Notes: generated by a model not told the origin, from the letters alone. DNA of 64,000 nucleotides from Candidatus Parcubacteria bacterium (GCA_003599295.1 QZJK01000011.1:13372-77371), one strand, 5' to 3'; numbered from the stretch's first letter, positions 12,788-48,003 are shown. Numbers and translations are program-made.

Positions 12788-12815
12788 TAAAAAAACCCCG
12801 CTCGCTCGGGGTTAT
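12788..12815 (-). terminator. Rho-independent terminator for the arsR-family operon. On the minus strand: ccccg-agcgag-cgggg then TTTTTTT.
   Basis: Stem plus a U7 run, read directly. Confidence 0.6.
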
Positions 12816-15318: not shown

Positions 15319-15392
15319 CGCGAGCGACCGGATTTGAACCGGCGACCTTTCCCGTGACAGGGGAACGCTCTAACCAGCTGAGCTACGCCCGC
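15319..15392 (-). tRNA. tRNA-Asp, anticodon GTC.
   Basis: GCGGGCGTAGCTCAGCTGGTTAGAGCGTTCCCCTGTCACGGGAAAGGTCGCCGGTTCAAATCCGGTCGCTCGCG. Anticodon loop ctGTCac. Confidence 0.8.
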
Positions 15393-15469
15393 AAGTGAGG
15401 AGCAAAGAGCATGCTTGCATGCTTTTTCTCCGAATGCCGCGGGCGTATGAGCCATGCGATTACGCCCGC
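15393..15469 (-). repeat. Conserved about 80-bp tRNA upstream leader repeat, copy 1, in front of tRNA-Asp.
   Basis: About 80% identical to 15577-15668. Shared blocks are agtgaggagcaaa, ctttttctccgaa and tatgag..cgattacgcc. It contains a copy of the tRNA 5' end (gcgggcgta) in a 9-bp hairpin, gcgggcgta-N13-tacgcccgc. Confidence 0.5.
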
Positions 15470-15508: not shown

Positions 15509-15575
15509 TGGTGCCGGCGCCAGGAGTTGAACCTGGGACCTAGCGCTTATGAAACGCTCGCTCTAACCACCTGAG
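15509..15575 (-). tRNA. tRNA-Met, anticodon CAT. Elongator Met or Ile2-type; these cannot be distinguished by eye. CCA is encoded.
   Basis: GCCGGCGTAGCTCAGGTGGTTAGAGCGAGCGTTTCATAAGCGCTAGGTCCCAGGTTCAACTCCTGGCGCCGGCACCA. Anticodon loop ttCATaa. Confidence 0.75.
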
Positions 15576-15576
15576 C

Positions 15577-15668
15577 TACGCCGGCCTAGTGAGGAGCAAA
15601 AAGGATGCTAGCGTCCTTTTTCTCCGAACGCCGCCGGAGTATGAGAAATACTCGATTACGCCGGCGTA
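15577..15668 (-). repeat. Conserved tRNA upstream leader repeat, copy 2, in front of tRNA-Met(CAT).
   Basis: Homologous to 15393-15469. It contains a copy of the tRNA-Met 5' end (gccggcgta) plus an inverted partner. Confidence 0.5.
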
Positions 15669-20744: not shown

Positions 20745-22175
20745 TTAGTACCGAAGTTCAACTGACCGCTGCAGTGTGCGCGGATTCGTCGAGATAGTGG
20801 CGCAATTCGTACTGAATCCATCCGCGCGAACGGTCGTCCGAACGGCTTGGCTCGCGCCGCTTCGAGTCTTCTCGACAGAGACGTCGACGCAGTACCCGTT
20901 CGGTTCGAACTGGAACGTCTGCGGATTGCCGTAGCTTGTAAACGGGGAGATATTCAAAGCTTCACCGTCGCATGTGGCTGACACTGGTCCTGTGCCCCCA
21001 CTACCTCCACCACCGTCCGCTCCAGCGGGCGTATATGTAATAACGATTATTCCTCCAGCTCCCGCACCTGCGCTCGATGCATCACCTCCTTTGCCGCCTC
21101 CACCTGCTCCATATGACCCACCGGCTCCGCCGCGGCCCTCGTCGCCGCCTCCTGCGCCGCCACCACCTGCACCTTGCGCGCCCCATTCAATACCACTGCC
21201 ACCATTTCCTCCGGTGCCCGGATTTCCGAATCCGCCGCCACCGCCGCCACCGCCGTTGGTACCGCTTTGGCCGGGATCTCCAGAAGAACCTCCCGCGCCA
21301 CCACCTGAACCGGATGAGTTATTTCCTCCTCTGCCACCTGTTTTTCCTGAAGCATTTGCTCCTGCCGTTCCGCCGCCACTGCCACCGCCGCCACCACCCG
21401 CTTCATTTCCTGTACCAGCGCTCCCATTGCCACCGTTCCTTCCGGCGCCATTCGGCCCGGCAGCGCCACCGCCTCCGCCACCGCCGGATACATCGCCGCT
21501 GCCTGAACTTCCCCCACTCCCACCCGCAAATTTCGTCGTGCCAACGCCAGATGTCGGCCCTCCTGCTCCACCAACGTTTCCGTTCCCCGCGCTTCCCCCA
21601 TTCGCACACACTGTTGAATCGGCACAACTTGTGCCATTGAAATACGTATCGCCGCCGCTTCCTCCTTGCCCGCCGCCAGAACCGACGGAATAACCAATGG
21701 AACTCCCGGGCGTGAGATTGACATTCGTTACTTTAGAATACGCGCCGCCACCGCCACCGCCCGTTGGAGAATTGCCGCCGCCGCTATCACCGCCTCCTCC
21801 GCCACCGATGACCTCTATCGAATTGTTGGAATCATTCCAATCGGCGGGGACTGTCCACGAACTGCCCGACGTGCGTACGATGGTGATCTCCGCTCCTCCG
21901 CCACCGCCGCCACCGCCTGCTGCTGCCGGTCCGAATGCTTGATGTCGAAAATCCCAATAGAGAGCGCATTCGGCACCGGTATCTGCCGCATAGAATGCAA
22001 ATTGCGAATCGCGTCCTATTGAAGAGAGCGTGAGCTCCTTTTGCGCGACACCGAAAATCGAGGCGCCCAGCGCAAGCACGATTGACGCAACGAGGGCCGC
22101 CAAAAGAAGCGTAAAGCCGCGCTCTCCGCTTCGCTTCTCTGTCATCTTGTTTATGTATTGAAACATACTCGTCAT
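20745..22175 (-). CDS. Giant glycine-rich type IV pilin-like protein. It has the prepilin N-terminal cleavage/methylation motif.
   Basis: Leader plus G|FTLLLAALVASIVLALG. About 60% of the residues are Gly or Ser (poly-G tracts GGGGGGGG). The C-terminal motif is GIIVITYTP. The start overlaps the upstream stop (ATGA). Confidence 0.7.
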   Translation of the reverse strand: MTSMFQYINKMTEKRSGERGFTLLLAALVASIVLALGASIFGVAQKELTLSSIGRDSQFAFYAADTGAECALYWDFRHQAFGPAAAGGGGGGGGAEITIVRTSGSSWTVPADWNDSNNSIEVIGGGGGGDSGGGNSPTGGGGGGAYSKVTNVNLTPGSSIGYSVGSGGGQGGSGGDTYFNGTSCADSTVCANGGSAGNGNVGGAGGPTSGVGTTKFAGGSGGSSGSGDVSGGGGGGGAAGPNGAGRNGGNGSAGTGNEAGGGGGGSGGGTAGANASGKTGGRGGNNSSGSGGGAGGSSGDPGQSGTNGGGGGGGGFGNPGTGGNGGSGIEWGAQGAGGGGAGGGDEGRGGAGGSYGAGGGGKGGDASSAGAGAGGIIVITYTPAGADGGGGSGGTGPVSATCDGEALNISPFTSYGNPQTFQFEPNGYCVDVSVEKTRSGASQAVRTTVRADGFSTNCATISTNPRTLQRSVELRY

Positions 22176-23338
22176 TCCCAGGTTATTTCTACACGGCCAG
22201 GTGCACCCGCGCCTCCAGGACCGCCCCCTGTGCCTCCGAGGCCTCCGCCTCCGACAACGACCGTCATTTGAGAACCGGCGCTTAGGCTTCCGGCAGAGTA
22301 CGTTCTGCTCACGTATCCTCCGCTTCCACCGCCTCCGCCGTGGATCGTTCCTGAACCTTCGTCGCCGCCACCGCCGCCGGCACCGGGTGCGCTCCCAGTC
22401 GAGCCGGCTGTATTGTTGCCCCCCACGCCACCAGCGCCTCCGTCTCCGGGTGCACTTCCGCCTGCGCCGCCAGCGGCTGACGTCGTGTTTATGCCGGAAT
22501 TTCCGGGAGTGTTAACCGTCCCGCCTGTAGCAGTCCCGCCAGCACCTCCTTGGCCGCCGCCGGAGTATCCGCCTCTGCCGCCTTGACCACCGCCCGCTGT
22601 CCGCGTAGCGCCAGCGACTGTTATCGATGTGGCGCCACCAGGGTCTCCATCTCCCGCGGAGCCGCTTGCTTCCGAGCCACCGCCCGCGCCGCCGCCCCAA
22701 AGCTTCACGACGAGGCTCGTCGCATACTCGGGCACCAAGAACGTGTATTGGCCGGGAACGGAGAACGTAATCGCGTTTCCAGATGCTGTATCGTCGCCTC
22801 CACCACCGGACACGGAAGAGTCCGCTATCCAACGGTAGAGATTCTCCGATATCGTGAATGTGCGTGTCTGGAATGAACCGGAGCGCCAAGAAACGGTGAC
22901 CGACACCCGCACTTCATCGTCATTGCCCGACACGGGTTCCGCGCGCACCGTGCGCGTGAAGCGTGTAGCGACCCACGGCGACCCGTTCTCGTATCCATAG
23001 AGTTCCCCGTCCGTTTTAAGAGGCGGACACGTCACCGGACACTGCGTCATGCTGCCATTCCGGGTATCAACGGTGAATGGCTGGCCGGTGATGGAGGGAA
23101 TGCCGGTCAGAAGGTCCACTGAAGCACCCAGTGCATTCTGAAGAATATTCCCATCGCGCACATTGCGAACGGTTTCAACAGCTTCCTGCGCAAGATGGAA
23201 TGCCGTTATCTGGTCTCTCGCATAGTACGCGGCCGAAAGACTGCGCGCCGTAAGCGTCATCGGCGCGACGACTGCGACCGTAAGGAGCGAGACCGCCACC
23301 AATGTTTCTATGAGTGTGAAGCCTTTTTTCATGGTCAT
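22172..23338 (-). CDS. Giant glycine-rich type IV pilin-like protein.
   Basis: MTMKKG|FTLIETLVAVSLL prepilin motif. C-terminal region SLVVKLWGGGAGGG...GAPGRVEITWE. ATGA overlap with the upstream pilin gene. Confidence 0.7.
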   Translation of the reverse strand: MTMKKGFTLIETLVAVSLLTVAVVAPMTLTARSLSAAYYARDQITAFHLAQEAVETVRNVRDGNILQNALGASVDLLTGIPSITGQPFTVDTRNGSMTQCPVTCPPLKTDGELYGYENGSPWVATRFTRTVRAEPVSGNDDEVRVSVTVSWRSGSFQTRTFTISENLYRWIADSSVSGGGGDDTASGNAITFSVPGQYTFLVPEYATSLVVKLWGGGAGGGSEASGSAGDGDPGGATSITVAGATRTAGGGQGGRGGYSGGGQGGAGGTATGGTVNTPGNSGINTTSAAGGAGGSAPGDGGAGGVGGNNTAGSTGSAPGAGGGGGDEGSGTIHGGGGGSGGYVSRTYSAGSLSAGSQMTVVVGGGGLGGTGGGPGGAGAPGRVEITWE

Positions 23339-23901
23339 AGGTCAAGGGCGCGCTGGACGGCGGTCGCTTGGATGTGGAACGTGGTGCGCGTTTTTACCTT
23401 GTCCGCGCCCGCGGTCCCTTTGATGGAAATGACCACTTTCGGCTGGCTCGTGTCGCCCGGCGTCGTGCCGATGACGTAGAATTTCATGCTGTCGATAGTG
23501 ACGGACGGTGAAGTAATGGCGATCGAATTTTGACCGGAATTCTCCGATTTATAAATGCGTTTGGTCGACGCATCGTAGAGGTATACCCATTGGTCGCCTG
23601 CATCACCTCTGTCTCCCCCGAATGCCTCGAATGCGAGCACGGTGTCGCCGTTCCCGCAATCGCGCGCCAGAGAATACTCTCCTCCACCGCAATGGTAGAC
23701 GCTCCCCATGCGAAGTGCGCGCACCATGCTGTCGAGTGCAATATTCAAATTGTTCATGACGGAATGAAGCGCCTGAGTTTTCCGATTCGCATCAACGAGC
23801 GAAAGAAGGGCCGTGACGGAAACGAGCATGACGACAGCGAAGAGCGCCGTCGAAACTATCATTTCAATGAGCGTAAATCCTTTATCTCCTTTCATGCTCA
23901 T
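23335..23901 (-). CDS. Type IV pilin/pseudopilin-like protein.
   Basis: MSMKGDKG|FTLIEMIVSTALFAVV prepilin motif. Confidence 0.75.
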   Translation of the reverse strand: MSMKGDKGFTLIEMIVSTALFAVVMLVSVTALLSLVDANRKTQALHSVMNNLNIALDSMVRALRMGSVYHCGGGEYSLARDCGNGDTVLAFEAFGGDRGDAGDQWVYLYDASTKRIYKSENSGQNSIAITSPSVTIDSMKFYVIGTTPGDTSQPKVVISIKGTAGADKVKTRTTFHIQATAVQRALDL

Positions 23902-23904
23902 ACA

Positions 23905-24558
23905 TTATTGAACGGATATCTGTCCCGTGGACTCGACAATGACGCTTGCCTGGTCGCCCCGCGGCGATTCGAGGAGGACGCGTCCGCGTTCGTAGAGGGC
24001 TGCCGGATTCGCGACACCAGAGATGCCGTTCGCGCTGATGAAGGCATCTGGCTCCGGCCGTCGGAACATCAGGTCAAGCCTATTTAATCCGCATGTTTCC
24101 GTGGTGCTTCCCGGCGCAGTTACGCAAATATCGGCGGTATGAAATCCTCTCTGCATCGTTATCGACTCGACGAGTTCGTTCTGATTCGATTGGTATATGC
24201 CGTCTCCCGTCGCGGAAGGAAATGTGTCCGCGAACAAGACGTACACCGTGGGAGAATTGATGCTGAAATGCATGCCATATCCTGCGCTGAACTCGCTCTC
24301 GCCAAAACGGCGCACTGCTATCCCGTACACTTGCGCCTTCCGTACGGACAACGCGACATCATAGGCAAGGTTCTCAAGTAAAATCGCGCCTCCGAATCGG
24401 GCGTTATTCGCGAGCATGATACCGGTAATGAGGACAAGTATCCCGGTGACCACGATAAGCTCCGCCAAGGTGAAGCCCCGTTCTTTCCGCCGGCTTGGTT
24501 TCGTTCCATGCGAAAAACCATTAGCGGTCTCTGGATTCGCGGAATGTACTCGGCTCAT
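23905..24558 (-). CDS. Type IV pilin/pseudopilin-like protein.
   Basis: RKERG|FTLAELIVVTGILVLITGI prepilin motif. ATG 24558 overlaps the pilD stop (ATGA coupling); the ORF track start at 24606 would give an implausibly long leader. Confidence 0.7.
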   Translation of the reverse strand: MSRVHSANPETANGFSHGTKPSRRKERGFTLAELIVVTGILVLITGIMLANNARFGGAILLENLAYDVALSVRKAQVYGIAVRRFGESEFSAGYGMHFSINSPTVYVLFADTFPSATGDGIYQSNQNELVESITMQRGFHTADICVTAPGSTTETCGLNRLDLMFRRPEPDAFISANGISGVANPAALYERGRVLLESPRGDQASVIVESTGQISVQ

Positions 24559-25364
24559 AGGGGCAGGGGAAGCGCGTATAGGTGCGCGAACCACACGATT
24601 AGGCAACTCGCGACGAGAAATGGCCCGAACGGCACCTCGCTTTTCATTGTAAATCGCATTCGCCCATCACGGAATGCGGGTATGGGAATAAGTGTCCGCA
24701 CGAATCCCTGCACTGCATCGCTAGACATCGCAAGAAGCGGCAAGGAGACGGCTGCGCCCAGAATGAATGCGAAGAGGACCGCTATGAGGCCGCCCTCAAT
24801 GCCGAGGAGCCATCCTATCGAGAGCGCCAGCTTCGAATCGCCGAGGCCCATCCATTTCCCGTCCGATACGAGCCACAGAAGAAAAAGTGGGAGCGCAGTC
24901 AAAGGCCCCGCGAGTACCGCAAAAGCGTATGAAGCGCCTGTGCCGACGACCCCAAAGAGAGCCGCGGAGAGCGTAAGTATGCCGCACATAAGCACCCATC
25001 GGTCGGGAATGATGGTCGTGCGGAGGTCATGCACGGCGATAGCGAGGAGAAGTGCCGCGATGGGGAGTGCCACGAGTTTGAACGGTAGCTCTATGGGAGC
25101 GGCACCGATGAGCGCGAACAATACCGCAGTAGAGAGTTCAACAAGCGGATACTGGAGGGAAATACGCGCTTTGCAATCTCGACAGCGGCCGCCGAGGAGC
25201 ACCCATGAAAGAACGGGTACGAGATCATGTGACCGAATGCGCGCCCTGCATGAGGGACAGACGCTTCGACCGGAGATAGTTTCTTTCCCTTCTCGCAGAA
25301 CGAGAACGTTCAAGAAACTCCCGACGATGAGGCCGAACGAACCGAATACAAGGACGAGTGTCAT
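24555..25364 (-). CDS. pilD: Prepilin peptidase (A24 family).
   Basis: N-terminal Cys-rich zinc motif CPSC...CRDC. Multiple TM helices and a conserved Asp-containing region (LGDSKLALSIG). Confidence 0.85.
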   Translation of the reverse strand: MTLVLVFGSFGLIVGSFLNVLVLREGKETISGRSVCPSCRARIRSHDLVPVLSWVLLGGRCRDCKARISLQYPLVELSTAVLFALIGAAPIELPFKLVALPIAALLLAIAVHDLRTTIIPDRWVLMCGILTLSAALFGVVGTGASYAFAVLAGPLTALPLFLLWLVSDGKWMGLGDSKLALSIGWLLGIEGGLIAVLFAFILGAAVSLPLLAMSSDAVQGFVRTLIPIPAFRDGRMRFTMKSEVPFGPFLVASCLIVWFAHLYALPLPL

Positions 25365-25382
25365 TAGGAAGGATTATCGCAC

Positions 25383-25407
25383 AAAACCCCGCACGAGGCG
25401 GGGTTTT
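25383..25407 (-). terminator. Rho-independent terminator after pilA: aaaaccccgc-acgag-gcggggtttt. It is bidirectionally symmetric.
   Basis: Stem plus U-run, read directly. Confidence 0.6.
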
Positions 25408-25431
25408 GATGCCGATTGTTTTGCTCTACGA

Positions 25432-25929
25432 TTATGGCTTCACGTCGTAGACAGGATCGGTGCCGGCAAAGTCAGCACCGCTTCCCGTACAGATACCGGT
25501 GCTTGCCGCGGCATCCGCGTCCGAATCAAGCGCCGCGTTGTTGGTGATCTCGAGCGTCGCTCCGAGGTGATACGAGGAGCAGGTCGTTCCGGAGCCGAGT
25601 GCCGCGTACGAGTAGGGGCTTCCTGTCGACGGATCCTCGGGGATAGCCGAGATGAACCCGCCCGTTACGAGAGGACTGCTTGCCGTCGTTCCGATGGTTG
25701 TGGGGTATCCCGTCGTCGGGTTCGAGTCGTAATACAGTTCAAGCGCAAGCTGGAGCTGCTTGACATCGGAGACGCGTCGCGCGTCGCGGCCCTTCTGGCG
25801 AGCGCTATTGAGGGACGCCAACACGATAGACGAGAGAATACCGATTATCGCGATCACGACGAGAAGTTCGATCAGGGTGAATCCTTTCGATCCCCGTATA
25901 CCGTAACCGCGCATTGAAATAAGTGGCAT
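25432..25929 (-). CDS. pilA: Type IV major pilin.
   Basis: Leader...GSKG|FTLIELLVVIAIIGILSSIVLASLNSAR is the classic type IVa pilin N-terminus. A start at M25914 is also possible. It is followed by a strong terminator, as expected for a highly expressed pilin. Confidence 0.85.
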   Translation of the reverse strand: MPLISMRGYGIRGSKGFTLIELLVVIAIIGILSSIVLASLNSARQKGRDARRVSDVKQLQLALELYYDSNPTTGYPTTIGTTASSPLVTGGFISAIPEDPSTGSPYSYAALGSGTTCSSYHLGATLEITNNAALDSDADAAASTGICTGSGADFAGTDPVYDVKP

Positions 25930-33653: not shown

Positions 33654-33977
33654 TCAGAGTTCGTCTATCTTAGCGGCGAGAATGAAGTCATTCTCGGAAA
33701 GCCCGCCTATCGCGTGCGTCGTGAGTGTTATGCCTACCTTCCCCCACCCGACAAGCATATCCGGATGATGTCCCTCCGCCTCGGCGACGCCGCCTACCCT
33801 GTTCGCGAATGCGAGTGCCTCCTTGAAATTCTTGAACTTGAATGTCTTGGTAATTCTTTTTGCATCGGGCGAGAGCGACCAGCCGGGAACCTCCTTCAAA
33901 TACTCTTCCGCTTTGGTGCGGAAGAGGGGCATGACTCCCCCTTCGCACGGCACGCAATGTTTTTTGGCAAAGCTCAT
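33654..33977 (-). CDS. Pterin-4a-carbinolamine dehydratase (PCD/DCoH family).
   Basis: 107 aa with EGHHPD, the hallmark PCD motif. Confidence 0.8.
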   Translation of the reverse strand: MSFAKKHCVPCEGGVMPLFRTKAEEYLKEVPGWSLSPDAKRITKTFKFKNFKEALAFANRVGGVAEAEGHHPDMLVGWGKVGITLTTHAIGGLSENDFILAAKIDEL

Positions 33978-33994: not shown

Positions 33995-34642
33995 ATGAAT
34001 GTCCGCGCGTTCCTGAACACCATTCTCGATAGCGTCCTCCCGCGGCGCGAGCGGGATATGCGCACAAAACGGCGTTCACTCCAGGATATTCCGCTCGCTC
34101 CAACGACGCACGAACTGCTCGGCACGCGCATACTGACCATCATGGATTATCGGGAACGGGCGGTCGAAGAACTCTTGCAGAGTTTGAAATACGATGCGTC
34201 GGGACACGCCGCAACATTGTGTGCAGAGGCCCTTGAGGATTTCTTGCGGGAAGAGGTGTCTTCCGTTCGTGCATTCTCGACGAAGCGTATTCTCCTTGTG
34301 CCTGTGCCGCTTCATAAGGTGCGGGAGCGAGAGCGTGGATTCAATCAGATAGAAGTCATTCTTAAGCACCTGCCCAAAGAATTTCACGACGGCCGTGCCG
34401 CGGCTGTCGTTCCCGCGCTTTTACGCACCCGCCCGACGAAACAGCAAACGCATCTATCGCGCAATGAGCGCTTAAAGAACGTCGCGGGCGCATTCGAACT
34501 TTCCGACGCAAGCGTGCTTCACGATGCACACGTTGTTTTAATAGACGACGTCGTGACGACGGGTGCAACTCTGACCGAAGCGGCGAAGCCGCTCATGAAG
34601 CGCGGGATTTCTGTGAACCTGCTTGCACTCGCGCGGGCGTGA
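33995..34642 (+). CDS. comFC: ComF-family phosphoribosyltransferase-domain competence protein.
   Basis: LVPVPLHKVRERERGFNQ and the PRTase motif VVLIDDVVTTGATL. Confidence 0.8.
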   Translation: MNVRAFLNTILDSVLPRRERDMRTKRRSLQDIPLAPTTHELLGTRILTIMDYRERAVEELLQSLKYDASGHAATLCAEALEDFLREEVSSVRAFSTKRILLVPVPLHKVRERERGFNQIEVILKHLPKEFHDGRAAAVVPALLRTRPTKQQTHLSRNERLKNVAGAFELSDASVLHDAHVVLIDDVVTTGATLTEAAKPLMKRGISVNLLALARA

Positions 34643-34684
34643 AAAGAGCGCCTCGATGTGGTACGTTAAGCACGCAAGTGCGTA

Positions 34685-34773
34685 GGAGAGGTGGCCGAGT
34701 GGTCGAAGGCGGCACGGTGCTAACGTGTTAGGCGGGTAAAACTGTCTCGAGGGTTCGAATCCCTCCCTCTCCG
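34685..34773 (+). tRNA. tRNA-Ser, anticodon GCT, with long variable arm.
   Basis: GGAGAGGTGGCCGAGTGGTCGAAGGCGGCACGGTGCTAACGTGTTAGGCGGGTAAAACTGTCTCGAGGGTTCGAATCCCTCCCTCTCCG. Confidence 0.8.
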
Positions 34774-34951
34774 CAGATTTGAACGCAGTGAGAATACTGC
34801 GGAGAGGAGCAAGCGCTTCGCGCTTGCGTGGAGGGATTCGAAAGTGAGCGCGGGGTGCCTGTTCAGTAGGACGGGTCGCGCGAGCAGGCCCGAGCGGAGC
34901 GAGGAGCGACGGCGACGAGCGAGCTCTTGGGAGCATCCCTCCCTCTCCGCA
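34774..34951 (+). repeat. tRNA-trailer repeat element D, downstream of tRNA-Ser(GCT). It ends in a 17-nt direct repeat of the tRNA 3' end (atccctccctctccgca).
   Basis: Direct repeat at 34759-34775 and 34935-34951. Inverted copies tgcggagaggag and cgtggagggattcgaa, the hairpin caagcgcttcgcgcttg, and the gagcggagcgaggagcgacg block shared with element C. Confidence 0.5.
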
Positions 34952-34972
34952 AAAATCTATATAATAGAAGGT

Positions 34973-35305
34973 ATGACAAGAAAAGCTGGGGTTGTTCTTT
35001 TTTATGCACTTCCCATCGTTCTGATGATAAGCCTCATCCCGCTGATTCAGAATGATTATGTCCTTGCGGGCGTATACGGTGCCTGCATCGTTGCCCTGCT
35101 TTTCATAAAACGCGAGAAAAATGATCTCATCGCGCTCGCATTCGGCATTATCGGTATCACTATCGCCGAGTCCTTTTTCATCAGCACAGGGGTGGAAACG
35201 TTCGCGCGGCAGAGCTTTCTCGGCATGATGCCGCTCTGGCTCCCCTTCCTGTGGGGCTATGCGTTCGTGACCATAAAGCGCACGCTCCGCGTATTAGACC
35301 ATTGA
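34973..35305 (+). CDS. Hypothetical three-TM membrane protein.
   Basis: RBS gaagg before ATG 34973. The longer ORF from 34844 would run through the repeat element. Confidence 0.45.
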   Translation: MTRKAGVVLFYALPIVLMISLIPLIQNDYVLAGVYGACIVALLFIKREKNDLIALAFGIIGITIAESFFISTGVETFARQSFLGMMPLWLPFLWGYAFVTIKRTLRVLDH

Positions 35306-35362
35306 CCATTCACGCTGTCGCCATACGGCCATGGTATCTTTATCGATACCAACCGAAAGGAG

Positions 35363-35617
35363 GTGAGTTCTTTGCCAACCCTCATCATCAATCTCTTCTC
35401 GAACAGGGATGATTTCCTATTCGAGGCGTTCCGACTCGAATCTCGGCTTTCCATGCACGGGCAAATCAGCTCAACCAAGGGAAGCGGGGTGGCGCAGATA
35501 ACGCTTCGTACTCGGAAATCTCTGGAAGAGATCCGGGAAGAGATCAACCACTTGTCGCTCAAGGGCGACGTCAGATGCAACGAGGAAGAAAATGACAAGG
35601 AAATGTCACCGGCATAG
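35363..35617 (+). CDS. Hypothetical 84-aa protein with a GTG start.
   Basis: Perfect RBS aaaggagg 5-8 nt before GTG 35363. Confidence 0.45.
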   Translation: MSSLPTLIINLFSNRDDFLFEAFRLESRLSMHGQISSTKGSGVAQITLRTRKSLEEIREEINHLSLKGDVRCNEEENDKEMSPA

Positions 35618-35764
35618 CCGGCATTTCACGAGCCCGGAAACGACGTATGCATTGCATACGCACGTCCGGGCTCACTCAATACTTCAAGACGACATGGGGA
35701 TTGTGCGTACGAATGAAAAACAACACGCTATAGTGTATGCATTATCGAATAACGAAAACCTCGT

Positions 35765-36673
35765 ATGGGAAATCTGGGTTTGCGTCCCTTATCAATATTT
35801 CTGCTTGTATGCGCGCTTGCGCTCCCAACTTCTGCCGGTGCTTTTGAATTCGAGTTGCCTCAAGCACACCCCGGTGAGATACATGAGCGCATTACCGCAC
35901 GACTCAATTCGGCACTTCAAGGTTTGTGCGACCGTTTGCAGGACGGCAGACTTCCATTCCTCCTTCCAGATTTCTGCACTCCTCCCGAACCTCCTCCACC
36001 ACCTCCCCCGATTGACGTATGCCCGAACGTCCCAGGCAACCAGGAGAGCGGCCCGTGCGCTGACGAAGAATGCGTCGCGGATGGCGGGACGTGGAATGGC
36101 GAATCATGCGACGTGCCTCCGCCCGAAGAGACTATCGGGCATGTCGTTATAAGCGAAGTGCACTACAACATAGATGTCGCGCATGGTGTGAACGGAACTA
36201 ACGACAACAACGAATGGGTCGAGCTGTATAACGGAACGAATGAAACTGTTGACCTCTCCGGTTGGACGCTCGCTGACAATAGCTCGAGTGACGCGCTTCC
36301 CGCGGGAACAGTTCTTCCATCGGGGGCATTTCTTATCGTGACCGCAACGACAAGTACGGCTGATTTCTGGCCCGACATTCCGGATGATGTTGAGGTCGTA
36401 GTTCTTGGCAGTCAGATAGGCAACGGCCTTGCCGCGGACGGTGATGTCGTACTCTTGCGGGATGACGAAGACACTCTGATAGACGCAGTTTCCTGGGGCG
36501 ATGACACGACTGCCTTTGACCCTTCGGTGCCTGGCGTAGCACAAGGAGAATCTATCGCGCGCACCTTACTTACTGTTGATACGGACACGGCGGCAGATTG
36601 GGAGGGGCGCGGAATCCCTTCACCGGGGCTCGCGGACGTCCCGCTTCCTTCTGGTGTACCGGAGACTTTCTAA
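35765..36673 (+). CDS. Secreted lamin-tail-domain (LTD) protein.
   Basis: Signal peptide MGNLGLRPLSIFLLVCALALPTSAGA and a poly-Pro linker. LTD signature VVISEVHYN...NEWVELYNGTNETVDLSGWTL...LPAGTVLPSGAFLIV. Confidence 0.7.
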   Translation: MGNLGLRPLSIFLLVCALALPTSAGAFEFELPQAHPGEIHERITARLNSALQGLCDRLQDGRLPFLLPDFCTPPEPPPPPPPIDVCPNVPGNQESGPCADEECVADGGTWNGESCDVPPPEETIGHVVISEVHYNIDVAHGVNGTNDNNEWVELYNGTNETVDLSGWTLADNSSSDALPAGTVLPSGAFLIVTATTSTADFWPDIPDDVEVVVLGSQIGNGLAADGDVVLLRDDEDTLIDAVSWGDDTTAFDPSVPGVAQGESIARTLLTVDTDTAADWEGRGIPSPGLADVPLPSGVPETF

Positions 36674-36765
36674 ATCTTTAGAAACGTCGAATTATTGGCT
36701 CGGTTTCCACATTTCGCGCACCGAAACGCGTTGCGTGAGTGCCCTTTGGGGCGCAAAATTGCGCT

Positions 36766-39700
36766 ATGCATGAGCCTTTTATGAAGGCGGGTTCTCGCGG
36801 TTCTTCAATTCTCGGAAGTATTCTCTTGCTCGCGCTCGCAGGAAGTGCGGCTGTGTCGTTTGAACCGTTTTTTTCGACTCCTTCCGACCAAGAACAATTT
36901 GCGGCAAGCAGTCTCGCGCTCGTCGAGGACGCTTCAACCCCAACGCAAACCTCCGCCGGACAAGAAACGGCAACGCAATCAGATTCGCTAGCTCCAGGAA
37001 CCGTCGTAGATTTTAGAGATCAGGTGTATAGCGTGTACTATTCGTGCCGGCAAGAAACGAAAGAAAAAAGCAAGGTGGATGAGCTCACGCAAACCTGCCA
37101 ACCGGGTTTTCTCTACACCATCTATGAAAGCGACGGGGTCATCTCCGTGTCTCCAAGCCCCGGCCCGCAAGGCAATGTCGCCTGTCCCAGTAATACGCCA
37201 ACGCGCGCGGGATCATGCAGCAACCCGGCATCTCCGAATCCGGTCTTAAGTTGCTGGAGCGGACAACCTTCATCCGGCGTCGTCTACTACGCTATCGGAA
37301 ACGAGAAGCCTCAATTCGCCGGAAATTGCGCATCCGGGCAGAAACTCGACGTCGCCGGAAATCGCCTCACCGGACTCAGTAAAACGCTCGATGCGGCAGA
37401 CCCGGAAAAACAGTCCGCCATCATGGCAACGGCGGACATATCTCCCACGCAACAAGCCACGCTGATGAATGCGTTTAACAACATACAATCCGGAGAACAA
37501 AAAGTGGAGGAGATAAGTGCCGAGCGGAACGATATCGAACAGCAGATAACAGCGTATGCGAACTGTACGAATCCCGCGAATCCGTGCACAACGGAACTGC
37601 AAGCGCTCCAAACACGCAGAGACGAAATACTGCGGGAACAGCGGATAGCTGAGAGCGAGCTTGACTCGCTTCAAAATAATGCCCAACGTCTGTTGGCCGG
37701 CGAACCGCCGGTGAGCACGTCCGGTACAACGAATTTTCCCGGCTATGATCTCCCTTCTCGCCTTGATTTTGCCCGAAATACAACGGGCTTCAACGGTAGC
37801 GGTTTTATTGGGAGCCCGGAGGCGCAACCATCTTCCCGTCCTATCGTAGCCTCGCCGCCGCAAACGCCGAATCCGACGGGGGAAATTGATTGGGGGAAAT
37901 TCTATAACCAAGGGTCGAGTTACCGACCGACACCCCAGCCGACCGGATCCGAAAGTACGGCAGGAACGGGGGCTCAGCCTTTTCAAGGTCCTCAATTCAC
38001 ACCGAGCTCCTATACGCCGCCCGGCATATCCGGTCCGAACAGGTTGACCGATGAAGAGCTCGCACAATTCCCTCCCGAGATCCAGCAGGCGGCTCAAAAA
38101 CAATGCGAGCTGGGGCGCTGTGCTCTCATGCATCGAATAGCTGGAAGTGATGCAACTTCCGCACAAGAAAAAGCGGGGCAAGTGACGCAGGTCGCGCTCA
38201 TAGGTTCGCCCAGTTGCTCACAAGTATCGATATCCGACTGTTTCAAGGCGGCCGATCTTCCTTACACGCTCGAGGGCCGCAAGCAAGTATGCGGAGCGCT
38301 GGGACTCGACTACTGCGACAGCGTGGGGAGCGCAAAAACGAACGTGCGAATGGCGGAGGACGTGAAAAGATTCTCCCAAACGGGTACGGTCACTGAAGTT
38401 ACGCAAACACGGACTGTTACCATTGACTCGCGCGGCTCCATTCTCGGAGAAGAAATTACGGAGAAAAGTACGGAATCACAAGTTATCGCTCCATCATACC
38501 AAGAGGGCGCGACGTTGCGTGATCTCGAAGCTTTCTACGATAGGGCTCAAGAAACCCAGAACGGGGTGGAGACCGTATATAAAGTGACGGGAGACGTGTG
38601 CGGGGTCGTCGGCACGAGCAGTAGCGACCAAACCTGCAGCTACTATCGGCGATTGGCTGACGCGCAAGGCGGCGTGTTGTCGAAAGACCAGTTGCCTTCT
38701 TATACCCGACAACAGCTCACCGCGGTCGAGACGGCCGGAAAAGCTATCCAAACACCGTTCCCGACCGCAGGAACTGTTTCCGATGTTGCGCCGAGAACGG
38801 CGGGCGGAACACTCGAAGCAGAGAATCTCGCGCCGCTTTTTGACGCAGAGAGGGTGCGGAACGCGGAAACAGCGCGCCTGGAAGGACTGGCTACGTATTA
38901 CAAAGAACAACAGCAAGAGCGAATCATCGAGACCACGTCAAGTCGCCTTCAGGGCCTTGCTGATTTTACGGAAGCGCAACAAGTGGCTCGGGCAAATGAG
39001 GCTTCGATACAACGCTGGGAAGGCATGGCTGCTTATGCAGAAGCGCAACGGGAAGCCCGCGCTCGTTCGAATGATGCTGCTTCCGCGCGGCTTCAAGGCC
39101 AAGCAGATTTCATAGCGCGTACCAATTATTTGGAGAACCATCCGACAACGCAAAATATGTATGACGCGTTGATAGCGGCGGGCCAAACGCCCGCAGAGAC
39201 CCAGCAGTATATAGACAAAGTGGTTTCAACCGGTGCTTGGAATACCGGGACGGAGGCGCAAGTGGATTCATACCTCGCGCACAACTACGACCGCATCGTC
39301 GAGTACGGTAAAGAGCGTACGGCGCTCGGAGAAGCTCTTCTCGGGAAAATAGTAGCGTCAGGGCCGCCACCGCCCGTAAGTGATATCCAAGTCACTTCCG
39401 CACCGCTTGTCCCGATACCGGGCTCCACAGAAAGCCTATCTACGAGAGATCTCATCAATCAAATCGTGACAGGAGGTTCACAGGCCCCTTCCGCGGCAAA
39501 CGAACTTTGGGATAGAGCGACCACGCGCCCTGCATGGCTTGACCCCGCGATAAAGCCTGCCGCGGATCTCGTCTCAGATCTGACCGGAAAAGATCAGGTA
39601 CTTTTCGGTGTGCAAGGACAACAATCGCAGGCTACGGATGAAGGAGTCCTTACGATAGATACGGGCATCAGGAGAGACTTTTCAATCGCCGATCCTGATC

Positions 39701-40455
39701 TTACGACAAGCGAACTCTCGCGAATTCTCCAAGAACGCGAGTTTGTCCAAACAGTGCCTTCCGGCTCGTCGATTTTCCAAACGTCGCTTCCGGTGACCCC
39801 CTCGGCCGCAAAACTCATTCCTTCGACATTGCCGAGCCCGACACTAACGGACATCGATTATGACGCGACCTTCTCGCGTGCAGTGCAAACGTACGGCGCA
39901 GACAGTATAGAAGTTCTCGGCGTTCAAAGCCTACTTTCGAATCCGGATCTCCGCGATGTGAATGAACTTGAGGCGCGTCTCCAGGTGTATGACTTGGCAC
40001 CCGTCCCTTCGCAAGAATTTCTCGGGACTGATCGGAGCATTCCCATCCCCTCTTCAGGTTACGTGCCTGTCGAAAGTAGTATCGGCTGTTGGTCCCCGAA
40101 CGTTGATTGCGGACTCATGAACAGAATGCCGGCGGAAGGGCAAACGGTCGTATTCACTCCGTCAGATGGGGGAGGGACCGAATATTCCTACTACACGCCA
40201 CCTACAGGTGTTATGTCGGCTCTGAACCCGTCCTCTTGGTTTACCCAGACCGGAACGGTTTCTCAAACTCTTCTTCCTGCAGGCGCTTCAACCGTTACCG
40301 TTACGAACGACGGCGGCGTCTTGTCTGTAAGAGTCGGCGGTTCGTCGAGCGTACGTGGTGTATACTCTTCTCAATCCGCCACATCGGCTACGTACGGACA
40401 GATACTCTCGGGACTTTCCGGACAACCCTTAAGAATTACAGCACCCGGTCAATAA
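36766..40455 (+). CDS. Very large secreted/surface protein, about 1230 aa, low complexity (Ser/Thr/Gln/Ala/Pro-rich).
   Basis: Signal peptide MKAGSRGSSILGSILLLALAGSAAVS. A long uninterrupted ORF with coiled-coil-like stretches and no catalytic motif. Confidence 0.65.
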   Translation: MHEPFMKAGSRGSSILGSILLLALAGSAAVSFEPFFSTPSDQEQFAASSLALVEDASTPTQTSAGQETATQSDSLAPGTVVDFRDQVYSVYYSCRQETKEKSKVDELTQTCQPGFLYTIYESDGVISVSPSPGPQGNVACPSNTPTRAGSCSNPASPNPVLSCWSGQPSSGVVYYAIGNEKPQFAGNCASGQKLDVAGNRLTGLSKTLDAADPEKQSAIMATADISPTQQATLMNAFNNIQSGEQKVEEISAERNDIEQQITAYANCTNPANPCTTELQALQTRRDEILREQRIAESELDSLQNNAQRLLAGEPPVSTSGTTNFPGYDLPSRLDFARNTTGFNGSGFIGSPEAQPSSRPIVASPPQTPNPTGEIDWGKFYNQGSSYRPTPQPTGSESTAGTGAQPFQGPQFTPSSYTPPGISGPNRLTDEELAQFPPEIQQAAQKQCELGRCALMHRIAGSDATSAQEKAGQVTQVALIGSPSCSQVSISDCFKAADLPYTLEGRKQVCGALGLDYCDSVGSAKTNVRMAEDVKRFSQTGTVTEVTQTRTVTIDSRGSILGEEITEKSTESQVIAPSYQEGATLRDLEAFYDRAQETQNGVETVYKVTGDVCGVVGTSSSDQTCSYYRRLADAQGGVLSKDQLPSYTRQQLTAVETAGKAIQTPFPTAGTVSDVAPRTAGGTLEAENLAPLFDAERVRNAETARLEGLATYYKEQQQERIIETTSSRLQGLADFTEAQQVARANEASIQRWEGMAAYAEAQREARARSNDAASARLQGQADFIARTNYLENHPTTQNMYDALIAAGQTPAETQQYIDKVVSTGAWNTGTEAQVDSYLAHNYDRIVEYGKERTALGEALLGKIVASGPPPPVSDIQVTSAPLVPIPGSTESLSTRDLINQIVTGGSQAPSAANELWDRATTRPAWLDPAIKPAADLVSDLTGKDQVLFGVQGQQSQATDEGVLTIDTGIRRDFSIADPDLTTSELSRILQEREFVQTVPSGSSIFQTSLPVTPSAAKLIPSTLPSPTLTDIDYDATFSRAVQTYGADSIEVLGVQSLLSNPDLRDVNELEARLQVYDLAPVPSQEFLGTDRSIPIPSSGYVPVESSIGCWSPNVDCGLMNRMPAEGQTVVFTPSDGGGTEYSYYTPPTGVMSALNPSSWFTQTGTVSQTLLPAGASTVTVTNDGGVLSVRVGGSSSVRGVYSSQSATSATYGQILSGLSGQPLRITAPGQ

Positions 40456-40777
40456 GCCAATTAAGTATCGAAAGAACGATGGCTCCTAGAAGCGCAGAGA
40501 AAAATCCCGCGACGGTGAATCCAGGCACTATCCATTGCATCGCGTAAAAAAGAAATGCATTGAGAACGAATGAAAAGAGTCCGAACGTGATGAGCGTTAT
40601 CGGGAGTGTGAGAACGTGAAGCACTGGCCGCACCACCATCACGATGACAGACCACACGAGCGCGACGAATAAAATCGTCGTCCATCCACCGGCGACAGTG
40701 ATACCGGGAACAAGATTGACAGTGAGATACACTGCCGCGACGGTTCCTAAATATTTTAAGACTATATGCACCCACAC
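40436..40777 (-). CDS. Phage-holin-4-like (DUF360-type) four-TM membrane protein.
   Basis: VPGITVAGGW...VRPVLHVLTLPITLITFGLFSFVLNAFLFYA...VPGFTVAGFFSALLGAIVLSILNWL matches the conserved VPG.-V-G/RP-L-LTLP pattern of this family. Confidence 0.65.
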   Translation of the reverse strand: MWVHIVLKYLGTVAAVYLTVNLVPGITVAGGWTTILFVALVWSVIVMVVRPVLHVLTLPITLITFGLFSFVLNAFLFYAMQWIVPGFTVAGFFSALLGAIVLSILNWLIDRVL

Positions 40778-41230: not shown

Positions 41231-43387
41231 ATGCAGCCAAACGATGATATATCGAAGCATTTTCGTCTTACTCCAGTACAGTCGGCCGCTCTAAAACGGC
41301 TCGGTTTGGGGACGATAGGCGCTCTCCTCCGGCATTTCCCCGCGCGCTATGAGACAGCGGGTGCTTCGGGAAGAGCCGGAGGGCTCGTACCGGGTACGAA
41401 AGTGACCCTTATCGGAACTCTTTCAAAACTCAAGGCCAGAAAACTTTGGAAAAGCCGCAGGAACGTCACCGAAGGATGGTTCGAGGATTCTTCAGGTCGC
41501 GTAAAAGTCATGTGGTTCAACCAGCCCTACATGGCTTCATACGTCCCGCAAACCGCGCTCGTGAAAGTAAGCGGGACGGTCGGAGGAAAAGAAGACCGCC
41601 CGTACATCGCGAATCCGGAGGTTGAGGCCATTCCAGCCGGAGCCGCGCTAGAAGGAATGTTCACGGGAGATACAGAGCCCGAGAGAGCATCTGTGTTCCC
41701 CGTGTATCCCGAGACGCGCGGCATCACGACAAAATGGTTCTACCACGCGCTCGAGCGGGTCTTCGCGAGCGATATTTTAACGCATGTTGCCGACCCTATC
41801 CCCTCCGATGTGCGCGACCGGTATCATCTCCCCGATCTCGCGCGTTCGCTTCTCGCGATGCATCGTCCATCGAATCCCCGCGAGGCGGAAGCTGCGCGAA
41901 AGCGCTTCGCGTTCGAGGAGATCTTTTCCATTTCGCTCACCCGCTCGCGCGAGCGGAGCGAAAACGACGCACAAGCTTCGTTCCCGATACAGAATGCCGA
42001 GGCTCTTGCCGAACGATTCCTCAAAACGATCCCCTTTCCGCCGACCGAGGCACAAAAGCGCGCGATCTCGGATATTTTGAAAGATTTCGGGGAACGACAC
42101 CCGATGGCGCGGCTACTCGAGGGTGATGTCGGGAGCGGCAAGACTCTCGTCGCGGCGGCGAGTGCCTACGCGGTCGTGAATTCTCGGCCGCCGAATCGCG
42201 AATCAGGTACGCTCCAAGCCGCCTACATGGCTCCGACGGAAATACTCGCGACCCAGCATTTCCAATCGTTCATCGAATATTTCTCGCACCTTCCCATCAA
42301 TATCGCGCTCATGACCGGAAGCGGCTGCAAGAAATTCCCCTCCAAAGTGAAACGCGGCGCCGCAACGGAGATATCTCGCGCGCAATTATTGAAATGGGTC
42401 GCGAACGGAGAGATAGCAATGGTCGTCGGCACGCACGCTCTCATCCAAAAATCCGTAAAATTCCAGCACCTGGCCTACGCAATAGTGGATGAACAGCATC
42501 GCTTCGGCACTCGCCAAAGGCGAGCGCTCGCGAGAAAGGGTGATGCGGCGCCGCATTTTCTCTCTATGACCGCAACACCCATTCCCCGAACGCTCGCGCT
42601 CACACTTTATGGCGACCTGGATCTCTCACTCCTCGACGAATTGCCGCCCGGGCGTGCGAAAGTGACGACCTCTATCGTGAAGCCAGAAGATCGCGAACGT
42701 GCCTACGCAGCAGTTCGAAGCGCGCTCTCGCGCGGAGAGCAGGCATACGTTATCTGTCCGCGCATCGAGGAACCCGATCCGGAAAAGTGGAACGCGCTCC
42801 AAGCGAAATCGGCAAAAGCCGAGGCAATCCGACTGAAAAAAGAAGTGTTCCCGAAACATGAGGTGGGGCTTCTCCACGGCGCGATGAAGAAAACGGAAAA
42901 AGAGAGTGCGATGCGCCGTTTTGCATCGAATGAAATACAGATACTCGTCGCGACATCGGTCGTCGAAGTTGGCATCAACGTGCCGAACGCGACGGTGATG
43001 CTCATTGAGGGGGCAGAGCGGTTCGGATTAGCCCAGCTCCATCAATTGCGCGGCCGCATCCAAAGGAGCTCGCGCCCACCGCATTGTTTTCTCCTCCCTG
43101 AAACGTCCGGGGAAATGGCGACGAAGCGCTTGCGCGCGCTCGAAAAATCGGACGACGGATTCAAGCTCGCGGAGGCGGACCTGGAAAGCCGTGGCGCGGG
43201 TGATCTCCTCGGGAGAAAACAATGGGGCATATCGGACCTCGGCATGGAAGCGCTGAAAAATCTGAAGCTCATTCGCGCCGCGCGCGAAGAAGCCGGGCTG
43301 CTTATTAAGCAAGACCCATCGCTCTCAAAGTATCCGGAGCTTCGCAAGCGCATCGAAGCGACCGCGATTGAACTGCACAGCGAGTAG
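41231..43387 (+). CDS. recG: ATP-dependent DNA helicase RecG.
   Basis: Wedge domain, Walker A GDVGSGKT, DEQH box and helicase C motifs. 718 aa. Confidence 0.95.
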   Translation: MQPNDDISKHFRLTPVQSAALKRLGLGTIGALLRHFPARYETAGASGRAGGLVPGTKVTLIGTLSKLKARKLWKSRRNVTEGWFEDSSGRVKVMWFNQPYMASYVPQTALVKVSGTVGGKEDRPYIANPEVEAIPAGAALEGMFTGDTEPERASVFPVYPETRGITTKWFYHALERVFASDILTHVADPIPSDVRDRYHLPDLARSLLAMHRPSNPREAEAARKRFAFEEIFSISLTRSRERSENDAQASFPIQNAEALAERFLKTIPFPPTEAQKRAISDILKDFGERHPMARLLEGDVGSGKTLVAAASAYAVVNSRPPNRESGTLQAAYMAPTEILATQHFQSFIEYFSHLPINIALMTGSGCKKFPSKVKRGAATEISRAQLLKWVANGEIAMVVGTHALIQKSVKFQHLAYAIVDEQHRFGTRQRRALARKGDAAPHFLSMTATPIPRTLALTLYGDLDLSLLDELPPGRAKVTTSIVKPEDRERAYAAVRSALSRGEQAYVICPRIEEPDPEKWNALQAKSAKAEAIRLKKEVFPKHEVGLLHGAMKKTEKESAMRRFASNEIQILVATSVVEVGINVPNATVMLIEGAERFGLAQLHQLRGRIQRSSRPPHCFLLPETSGEMATKRLRALEKSDDGFKLAEADLESRGAGDLLGRKQWGISDLGMEALKNLKLIRAAREEAGLLIKQDPSLSKYPELRKRIEATAIELHSE

Positions 43388-45051: not shown

Positions 45052-45120
45052 GCCCGTATTCTCGCACGCCCCCGGAAGTGCACAATCACCGGAATCCACA
45101 CGTGCTTCATGTACCTTCAG

Positions 45121-45193
45121 TCCGCCTGCCTGGACTCGAACCAGGAACCCCAGAGGTATAAGCTCTGTGCTCTAACCATTGAGCTACAGGCGG
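45121..45193 (-). tRNA. tRNA-Ile, anticodon TAT, which reads AUA.
   Basis: CCGCCTGTAGCTCAATGGTTAGAGCACAGAGCTTATACCTCTGGGGTTCCTGGTTCGAGTCCAGGCAGGCGGA. Anticodon stem cagag/ctctg with loop ctTATac. Confidence 0.7.
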
Positions 45194-46884: not shown

Positions 46885-48003
46885 ATGGCAAACGATAAAA
46901 CGTTAACCATAAAAAAACCGTTCGATTCGCACCTGCATCTGCGACGGGGCGCGGTCTTGCGCGCGGTGACGCCCTATTCAACAAAACGGTTCGGGCGCGC
47001 CATCATAATGCCGAACACGGAACCGCCGATAGAAACTGTTGAGCAGGCTACAGAATACAAAAAAGAAATTCTCGCTGCTGTAAATCATCCTAGTGTTTTG
47101 CAAAACACTAGAATAGATGAGGCTGCGTTCGAGCCATTGATGACCTTCTACCTCACGAAAAATCTGACGCCTGCGGAAATAGAGAGAGGATTTTCGAGCA
47201 GTGAATGTAAAATATTCGCGGTGAAATCCTATCCCTATGGCGCAACGACGAACTCACAGTGGGGCTACCGGAATATTTTGGAAGCGAAGGATGTACTGAA
47301 AAAGATGGAAGAGGTCGGCATGCCGCTCCTTCTCCACGGCGAAGTGCATTTGAACGAGCGCGACGAGGAGGAAGACCCGTACGACGGCGAGGCGATGTTC
47401 GTGAAAGACACGTTGCCGCGACTTCTCGACATGTATCCGAAACTAAAGATATCGCTTGAACATATGAGCTCGCACGAGGCAATCGATTTTATGGAAAAGA
47501 ACGGTAAAGACGGCAAACTCATGACGACGGTCACGCCGCATCACCTGATGTATGACCGGAGACACGCGTTTTCCGGCGGCTACCGCGCGCTCCTGCATTG
47601 CAAGCCGCTCGTCAAAAAGCGCGAGGACCGTGAAAGACTTCGCGATATGGTGAAAAAAGGACTTCCGTTCGTGTCTGCCGGGACAGACAGCGCGCCGCAT
47701 CCGGAGAACAAGAAATTCTCCTCGTGCTGTGCGTTTGGGGTCTTCAATTCCCCCGTCGCCCTAGAGATGTACGTACAAGTTTTCGACGAACTCGGAAGCC
47801 TCGACAAGCTCGAAGGGTTTCTTTCGGTGAACGGCCCGCGCTTTTTCGGCTTTGAGCCGGACGCAAATACGCTCACACTCGTGAAAAAAGACTGGCAGGT
47901 GACCGAGCCAGTCGTGACGGACGAAGGGGTGAATCTGTGGCCCGTTGGGCACGTAAAACACGGCCTTGGGAACGAGACTTTCCACTGGCAGATTTCGAAC
48001 TAG
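46885..48003 (+). CDS. pyrC: Dihydroorotase.
   Basis: DSHLHLR metal-binding motif and a 372-aa amidohydrolase fold. Confidence 0.8.
   Translation: MANDKTLTIKKPFDSHLHLRRGAVLRAVTPYSTKRFGRAIIMPNTEPPIETVEQATEYKKEILAAVNHPSVLQNTRIDEAAFEPLMTFYLTKNLTPAEIERGFSSSECKIFAVKSYPYGATTNSQWGYRNILEAKDVLKKMEEVGMPLLLHGEVHLNERDEEEDPYDGEAMFVKDTLPRLLDMYPKLKISLEHMSSHEAIDFMEKNGKDGKLMTTVTPHHLMYDRRHAFSGGYRALLHCKPLVKKREDRERLRDMVKKGLPFVSAGTDSAPHPENKKFSSCCAFGVFNSPVALEMYVQVFDELGSLDKLEGFLSVNGPRFFGFEPDANTLTLVKKDWQVTEPVVTDEGVNLWPVGHVKHGLGNETFHWQISN

Follow-up and report, generated by a model that had tools for sequence, protein, structure and literature searches.

Lamin-tail-domain and giant protein genes near the type IV pilus cluster of a Candidatus Parcubacteria genome: a clade-restricted pair, probably not part of a comF-linked DNA-uptake module

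The analysed window is a stretch of 64,000 nucleotides from the genome of Candidatus Parcubacteria bacterium (GCA_003599295.1, QZJK01000011.1:13372-77371), and three of its plus-strand genes are considered here: comF, encoding a ComF-family protein; a gene encoding a secreted protein with a lamin-tail domain (LTD); and a gene encoding a very large protein, hereafter the giant protein. All three are real open reading frames (ORFs) at the positions given in an earlier, sequence-only reading, which had joined them into a putative DNA-uptake or surface module next to the pilus genes (Table 1). The adjacency to the pilus was borne out: a complete type IV pilus cluster is located on the minus strand upstream of comF. 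The plus-strand run from comF to the giant gene is divergent from the block of genes from pterin-4a dehydratase and pilM to pilC. At the other end, the giant gene is convergent with a gene encoding a PF04020 membrane protein, and the 3' ends of the two genes overlap by 20 nt; the PF04020 gene is also found downstream of the giant gene in the related loci L001, L003, L007, L009 and L015.

The sequence-only reading placed two signal-peptide genes downstream of comF in the same orientation. The strand is correct, but the two genes do not follow comF directly, as the gene of tRNA-Ser, a gene encoding a 110-aa membrane protein and an 84-aa ORF intervene. The 3' end of the tRNA-Ser gene is repeated perfectly; the two 17-nt copies, 100% identical and 176 nt apart, have an inverted partial copy (34830-34842) between them, and the sequence of the repeat looks like an att-type integration scar where a variable slot begins. 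TATAAT-like and GAAGG motifs were found 5' of the ATG at 34973, which opens the 110-aa gene, the occupant of this slot in the window. The 84-aa ORF, with an AGGAGG motif just 5' of it, is 35% identical to an 88-aa ORF of L004 (pairwise E 3e-9) and has tblastn matches in L005 and L006 as well.

Table 1. Features of the comF–giant gene region and of its surroundings; positions are counted from the first letter of the window, and residue numbers of the giant protein from the ATG at 36784.
Feature	Coordinates	Strand	Remarks
Type IV pilus cluster, complete	~20.7-33.6 kb	-	Upstream of comF
Five N_methyl pilin-like genes and one unassigned 476-aa gene	20745-25929	-	Pilus cluster
Prepilin peptidase, PilC, PilT, response regulator, PilB, 114-aa gene, PilO, PilN-like, PilM	ends 33608	-	Rest of pilus cluster
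Pterin-4a dehydratase	33654-33977	-	After PilM
ComF-family phosphoribosyltransferase, 215 aa	33995-34642	+	TIGR00201, GntX and Pfam Pribosyltran profiles
tRNA-Ser(gct)	34685-34774	+	ARAGORN, Rfam; between comF and the downstream genes
Direct repeat of tRNA-Ser 3' end, 17 nt, perfect	34759-34775, 34935-34951	+	Repeat search
Multi-pass membrane protein, 110 aa	34973-35305	+	Weak DUF2878 match (PF11086, E 2.3e-4), below cut-off
84-aa ORF	35363-35617	+	No signal peptide; kept 5' of the LTD gene in the nearest relatives
Secreted LTD protein, 302 aa	35765-36673	+	Pfam PF00932, E 2.9e-18, residues 123-245
4-Cys 'DVCPNVPGNQ...' module of LTD protein	~36014-36109	+	
LTD beta-sandwich	~36131-36634	+	Predicted from profile
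Giant secreted or N-anchored protein, 1229 aa	36766-40455	+	Alternative starts GTG 36739 and ATG 36784
Signal/anchor leader of giant protein, SRGSSILGSILLLALAGSAA	36805-36858	+	Residues 8-25; the only hydrophobic segment
Conserved N-terminal module of giant protein	37000-37698	+	Beta domain and helical hairpin
Central 8-Cys domain of giant protein	38041-38763	+	Residues 420-660; best-conserved part among orthologues
Long helical region and small helical domain of giant protein	38773-39333	+	Residues ~664-850; helices predicted at low confidence
Variable S/P/T/G-rich C-terminal region of giant protein	39361-40452	+	Residues ~860-1223; pLDDT <35
PF04020 (Phage_holin_4_2) membrane protein, four transmembrane segments	40436-40777	-	Pfam E 2.8e-27
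RecG	41231-43387		Completes the neighbourhood, with a cupredoxin/PG_binding_1/PKD protein
Slot after comF in L009			Response regulator
Slot after comF in L004, L005, L006			ABM, DUF3750, small ORF
Slot after comF in L015			purT, fumarate-lyase gene, tRNA inverted

The lamin-tail domain named in the sequence-only reading was confirmed by profile: the match to PF00932 scores 66.7 bits, above the gathering score of 34.3, and covers model positions 4-108 of 109. The protein contains a Sec-type signal peptide (approximately residues 1-26, AGA/F), followed by a two-Cys helical region, a poly-Pro linker, the 4-Cys module and the LTD, which ends in the conserved motif DTDxxxDW...PxPG. Nearly all of the 95 homologues found contain PF00932. 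The mature protein is strongly acidic, with 7 K+R versus 49 D+E, a net charge of -42 and an isoelectric point (pI) of 4.05. No nuclease, metallo-beta-lactamase (MBL) or helix-hairpin-helix (HhH) domain was found in it with Pfam and NCBIfam; a weak match to the N-terminus of ExeM (E 0.0042) is limited to the LTD region. The signal peptide, PF00932 and the terminal motif are common to the window protein and to other secreted LTD proteins, including ExeM of Shewanella and Hvo_1477 of Haloferax. Unlike these, the extremely acidic window protein has no EEP, thermonuclease, MBL or other catalytic domain, and adds only the short 4-Cys 'CPNxPGxQ' module and proline linkers. The link between LTDs and extracellular DNA metabolism is that of LTDs fused to nucleases, for example Hvo_1477 and ExeM (PMC5118699).

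NCBI hypothetical protein C4556_02410, from a metagenome-assembled genome of Candidatus Parcubacteria, matches the giant ORF at 100% identity. The NCBI start is at 36784, giving 1224 aa; the start at 36766 is backed by the homologues P0003 and P0006, both of which open with MHEPFMKAGSRGSS. Serine, alanine and threonine each account for 9-10% of residues and glutamine for 7%; 18 cysteines are present, the net charge is -53 and the pI is 4.5. The earlier description of this protein as low-complexity did not hold, although its composition is biased towards S, A, T, G and Q: entropy in windows of 40 residues averages 3.6 bits, with a minimum of 3.19, and the 18 cysteines and conserved domains of the sequence characterize it as modular. 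The coiled-coil-like segments mentioned in the same description agree with the long helices predicted by modelling.

Relatives of the giant protein are very rare. When 1.84 billion cluster representatives were searched exhaustively with phmmer, 24 were found at E <=1e-3 and 16 at E <=1e-10; word-indexed searches gave 8 and then 4 more, and none was found in 185,579 species genomes with either the full-length sequence or an alignment of the central domain as query. The first metagenome scan was null, and the second returned three loci. The protein has no match in Pfam, NCBIfam, PHROGs or PDB sequences, and a Pfam search of the window protein together with 27 relatives gave a single match, to DUF3597. 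Members of the family are 755-1563 aa long and differ in their C-termini. Paralogues in tandem are present in L001 (854-3587 and 3666-7133) and L003 (3-842 and 922-4218), the upstream copy having a different C-terminus (IPxGxPFPxNC ... SWxSVFTRxCS), also found in P0006; such tandem paralogues fit a diversifying surface family.

A near-invariant motif, SRGSSILGxILLLAxAG, is present in the leader of the giant protein. Its G, S, I, L and A do not vary among homologues whose sequences otherwise share 25-60% identity, and the motif has no second occurrence within the window. Sec signal peptides are not usually so well conserved, and the leader may serve specifically for anchoring or sorting. A pilin-like nature of the protein was considered and rejected: no match to N_methyl (PF07963) was obtained even at E 0.1, and RG-SSILG is without the Glu at +5 of a class III signal, while PF07963 is matched by the genuine pilins encoded in the window. 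No C-terminal sorting signal (LPXTG, PEP-CTERM) with a transmembrane helix was found, and the protein ends in ...PLRITAPGQ.

The N-terminal module is represented by a beta domain with six conserved cysteines (residues ~73-185) and by helices followed by an antiparallel hairpin of ~37 residues, with two invariant cysteines at its tip and the motif RLLAGEPP (residues 190-305). Its model, with a beta domain and a long antiparallel helical hairpin, is confident (predicted local distance difference test, pLDDT, 88.4; predicted template modelling score 0.82), and its 8 cysteines are conserved across homologues. The beta domain had no fold match in PDB or among viral models, and the lists from these searches were dominated by matches to the helical hairpin. 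The hairpin resembles other antiparallel coiled-coil hairpins (prefoldin, the N-terminal region of IpaB/SipB, RipA) in generic geometry, with 5-15% identity. Since this likeness is generic and the attached beta domain has no match, no functional inference is justified.

A linker rich in P, S, G and T (residues ~310-420) leads to the central domain, which is 59-88% identical to its counterparts in L009 and P0002 and whose 8 cysteines are conserved across the three aligned sequences. The domain, for which AlphaFold2 confidence is only 45-63, contains a DUF3597-like helical motif, SISDCFKAADLPYTLEGRKQVCGALGLDYCDSVGSAKTN. A profile of this motif matches the DUF3597 structure 2gqb (E 9e-4), and the homologue P0003 matches PF12200 (E 8.4e-6). 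DUF3597 (PF12200; NMR structure 2gqb), a domain of no known function, has the ~50-residue helical motif SIxD[CF]xKA...R...LG...G.A..N in common with the central domain; the motif is also found C-terminally in the homologues P0004, P0005, P0008 and L015, but the window protein alone remains below Pfam significance. In the helical region that follows, four repeats of ~24 residues (xRLqGlAdf) were read by eye from the sequence, and self-BLAST detected no internal tandem repeats. The helical region is conserved in L007 and L009, including a duplicated NYLENxPT...YLxxNY unit. The C-terminal region cannot be aligned with most homologues and is common only to P0111 (34% identity). The full-length AlphaFold2 model is poor (mean pLDDT 43.7), and the best Foldseek match in PDB has an E of 0.3. 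The giant protein as the target of a diversity-generating retroelement was also considered and rejected, as the window contains no reverse transcriptase or bAvd homologue and no repeat touching 35.7-40.5 kb. Such an element (RVT_1 reverse transcriptase and bAvd) is present at 365-1736 of L004, ~2 kb from comF, and has no counterpart in the window.

Such an architecture could belong to a structural component of the envelope, namely, an S-layer-like or wall-associated scaffold anchored via the DUF3597-like motif and the LTD protein. The giant protein is indeed large, acidic, rich in S, T, A and G, secreted and without enzymatic domains; its neighbours include the envelope-related PF04020 membrane protein and the cupredoxin/PG_binding_1/PKD protein, and its N-terminal and central domains hint at a partner that is likewise conserved. 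However, neither an SLH domain nor any other known S-layer or anchoring domain was found with Pfam in the giant protein or its 27 relatives, so that the possibility, raised with the sequence-only reading, of an S-layer homologue finds no detectable homology behind it. The number of cysteines, 18, is atypical of S-layer proteins, the family is too narrow for a general part of the Parcubacteria envelope (24 representatives, and none in the species genomes searched), and its lengths and C-termini vary. Such a scaffold is unlikely.

A tblastn map of 15 loci showed one common backbone, which includes housekeeping genes: the type IV pilus cluster and pterin dehydratase gene; comF, tRNA-Ser, a variable slot, the LTD gene where present and the giant gene; then the PF04020 (holin-4) gene and RecG. 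The same tRNA-Ser(gct) follows comF in L004, L005 and L009, and in L015 the tRNA is located within the slot on the opposite strand. The gene content of the slot differs in every relative examined (Table 1). The tRNA-Ser gene and variable genes separate comF from the LTD–giant pair, or from the giant gene, in the window, L004, L009 and L015. In L015, comF is kept, the LTD gene is missing and the giant homologue has only 755 aa. The closeness of comF and the giant gene results from inherited collinear gene order, in which the housekeeping genes take part, and is not evidence of common function. The trio is thus not conserved as a contiguous unit in relatives, given its varying slot and the absence of the LTD gene from L015.

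The LTD gene, by contrast with comF, is located directly 5' of a giant homologue, on the same strand and with a gap of 92-173 nt, in five distinct loci: the window, L001, L004/L005/L006, L007/L008 and L009; in L001 a second giant paralogue lies in between. The pairing of the two genes is real, clade-restricted and non-obligatory. We prefer to regard the two proteins as a clade-restricted, extracytoplasmic, surface or adhesin-like pair of the Parcubacteria cell envelope, a reading to which we give about an even chance of being right. The N-terminal signal-type segments of both proteins and the conserved cysteines of the giant protein argue for export. The alternative of the sequence-only reading, host attachment or a surface layer, is plausible in this respect and preferred here, though no homology to a known adhesin or S-layer protein stands behind it. 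We infer the surface location, the orientation, the adhesin-like role and the interaction of the two proteins from architecture.

Several observations weigh against such a pair. For approximately 70% of the giant protein, the model has a pLDDT <50. The pairing is absent from L002 (Kaiserbacteria), L012, L013 and L015, where giant homologues occur without an LTD gene, and the more distant LTD homologues of L010 and L011 sit beside DUF8173 with no giant gene. The loci with the pair all belong to fairly close relatives, and the adjacency could be inherited gene order. These last observations, together with the collinearity of the whole region among relatives, agree with two secreted proteins, each lineage-specific, that have no joint function and whose genes are neighbours through descent only. 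Against that stands the retention of the same strand and short gap in the five loci, at LTD identity down to ~56% and even where the slot is rearranged. A secreted Cys-rich protein adjoining an LTD protein was also noted independently in a study of Roizmanbacteria (PMC6509639), a lead only, for which homology is not claimed. On balance, two proteins without a joint function are somewhat unlikely.

The assignment of the first gene to ComF is good at family level only, as judged from profiles. Matches were found to TIGR00201 (E 1.1e-26), GntX (E 4e-25) and, above the gathering score, PF00156 (Pribosyltran; E 2.6e-6), but the TIGR00201 score of 93.9 bits is below the NCBIfam curated cut-off of 233.55 and covers only model positions 28-190. 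The type I phosphoribosyltransferase (PRTase) domain with the phosphoribosyl pyrophosphate (PRPP)-binding loop is present (PF00156, TIGR00201). The window protein has in common with the ComFC/ComF family (ComFC of H. pylori and S. pneumoniae, GntX of E. coli) the PRPP loop VVLIDDVVTTGATL, the motifs ERGFNQ and NV.GAF and the type I PRTase core. It differs from this family in its score, far under the cut-off, and in the absence of the N-terminal 4-Cys zinc finger: the whole protein contains a single cysteine, and RRER stands where the first CxxC is normally found. An upstream in-frame extension is impossible, as no start codon lies between the preceding stop codon and the start of the ORF. Orthologues in L004, L009 and L015 align from their first few residues with 56-72% identity (64% for L009). 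In the window, comF does not adjoin the LTD or giant gene, and a role in transformation is putative. The zinc finger is highly conserved in ComFC, and ComFC of H. pylori needs it for DNA internalization (PMC9005727).

Pfam scans of ~50 window ORFs that are 150 aa or longer and were judged likely genes gave no match to ComEC, ComEA or DprA, in agreement with the earlier remark that comF is the only classic competence gene here. Nothing testable supported the other proposal of the sequence-only reading, a layer for capturing or processing extracellular DNA, in which the LTD and giant proteins would bind environmental DNA or pass it to a pilus/ComEC route coupled to ComF. What speaks for it is the position of a ComF-family gene 1.1 kb upstream with the full pilus cluster beside it, the closeness of comF and the giant gene kept in L004, L009 and L015, the weak match of the LTD protein to the N-terminus of ExeM, and the occurrence of LTDs in extracellular nucleases and proteins of extracellular DNA metabolism, including Hvo_1477 and haloarchaeal ComA-like proteins (PMC5118699). 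One distant giant homologue (L002) is, moreover, beside an EEP-family gene; this neighbour was rejected as a nuclease link, since it has no signal peptide, is encoded on the opposite strand and is found at a single locus.

Other evidence speaks against DNA capture. The LTD protein is without a catalytic or HhH domain, the giant protein likewise without nuclease, MBL or HhH domains, and a nuclease domain occurs in 0 of 95 LTD homologues and 0 of 28 members of the giant family. The additional domains found among these homologues are of surface type: PEP-CTERM, CBM_4_9, polysaccharide deacetylase and camelysin. Acidity is extreme in both secreted proteins, and no stretch of 30 residues in either reaches a net charge of +5; ComEA-type DNA receptors have HhH motifs and a basic surface, neither of which is present in the LTD or giant protein. 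A tRNA gene and a slot of unrelated genes, such as purT and the fumarate-lyase gene of L015, separate comF from the pair; the ComF protein lacks the finger required in H. pylori, and ComEC, ComEA and DprA are missing from the scanned ORFs. DNA capture by these proteins is therefore very unlikely, and the three genes quite probably do not form a comF-linked DNA-uptake module. Genes of dihydroorotase (46885-48003), GAR synthetase (purD, 60969-62246) and CTP synthase (7509-9179) are present in the window; the retention of some nucleotide biosynthesis genes weakens the idea of obligatory DNA scavenging for nucleotides. Cultivated Saccharibacteria, the one group of the candidate phyla radiation open to genetic work, require adhesins and type IV pili for epibiotic growth, and com genes are dispensable for their fitness (PMC10633639).

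In the preferred surface pair, the giant protein would be exported by Sec and either held in the membrane by its conserved N-terminal segment or released after cleavage. The disulfide-stabilized beta domain and the helical-hairpin stalk would form its membrane- or wall-proximal part, and the 8-Cys central domain and helical repeats would extend it outward; the central domain would engage a partner that is itself conserved, perhaps the LTD protein or material of the wall. The fast-evolving C-terminus would face outside as a surface for recognition or adhesion. By analogy, a conserved base with a variable distal end is a layout typical of adhesins and surface-recognition proteins. The acidic LTD protein would act as a non-enzymatic beta-sandwich accessory, with the envelope or the giant protein as its possible binding partner, and comF, in a separate transcription unit, would be a neighbour by gene order with no part in the function of the pair. 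The same combination of a large exported protein, a reduced genome, a nearby type IV pilus cluster and a conserved base topped by a variable distal part is known from surface proteins and adhesins of Patescibacteria, as in the epibiosis of Saccharibacteria (PMC10633639); no sequence or fold homology of the giant protein to these adhesins was demonstrated.

The kind of finding is ordinary for a genome of the candidate phyla radiation (CPR): a lineage-specific secreted hypothetical protein accompanied by an LTD protein. Its interest is modest and concerns a very rare family, an N-terminal fold without an informative match in the searches made, a conserved leader and a ComF without a zinc finger, the last perhaps noteworthy to researchers on CPR competence proteins. 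A bolder proposal is that the giant protein represents a previously undescribed, Parcubacteria-restricted family for host or surface recognition and forms with the LTD protein a new episymbiont attachment complex beside the pilus genes; we consider this quite improbable. Its novel parts may be the disulfide-rich beta domain, for which no match was found, a dedicated leader signal and docking with a non-enzymatic LTD protein. Such a surface-recognition complex, if real, would be another candidate for the attachment of ultra-small Parcubacteria to hosts or particles. To our knowledge, Parcubacteria have no cultivated member with genetic tools, and the question of attachment is open for this reason. 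As to comF, the presence of this gene and of pilus genes near secreted proteins in CPR genomes should not be taken for a DNA-uptake module unless contiguity is checked, and the linkage needs a further check of its survival outside collinear close relatives.

Other features were found elsewhere in the window. LOOT RNA (RF03000, 70.9 bits) is located at 3785-3909 (+), just 5' of an unassigned 306-aa ORF, which it slightly overlaps. The gene of a large serine recombinase (5583-7295, +) abuts genes of tRNA-Glu and tRNA-Ser (7255-7498), and this region may be an integrated element. An FMN riboswitch (12841-12959, -; 106.5 bits) is located directly 5' of a gene encoding an EamA-family transporter (11868-12887, -), which may be a riboflavin importer. 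A 946-aa protein encoded at 58116-60956 (-) has TraG-D_C, TrwB and HerA-type matches, as in the coupling protein of type IV secretion; type IV secretion systems have been described in Patescibacteria (PMC12102498). The gene of tRNA-Ile with anticodon UAU (tat) at 45120-45193 (-) is kept at the same place in L015 (16166-16239). A direct repeat of ~105 nt with 83% identity (15366-15469 and 15559-15665) is present across the region of tRNA-Asp and tRNA-Met.

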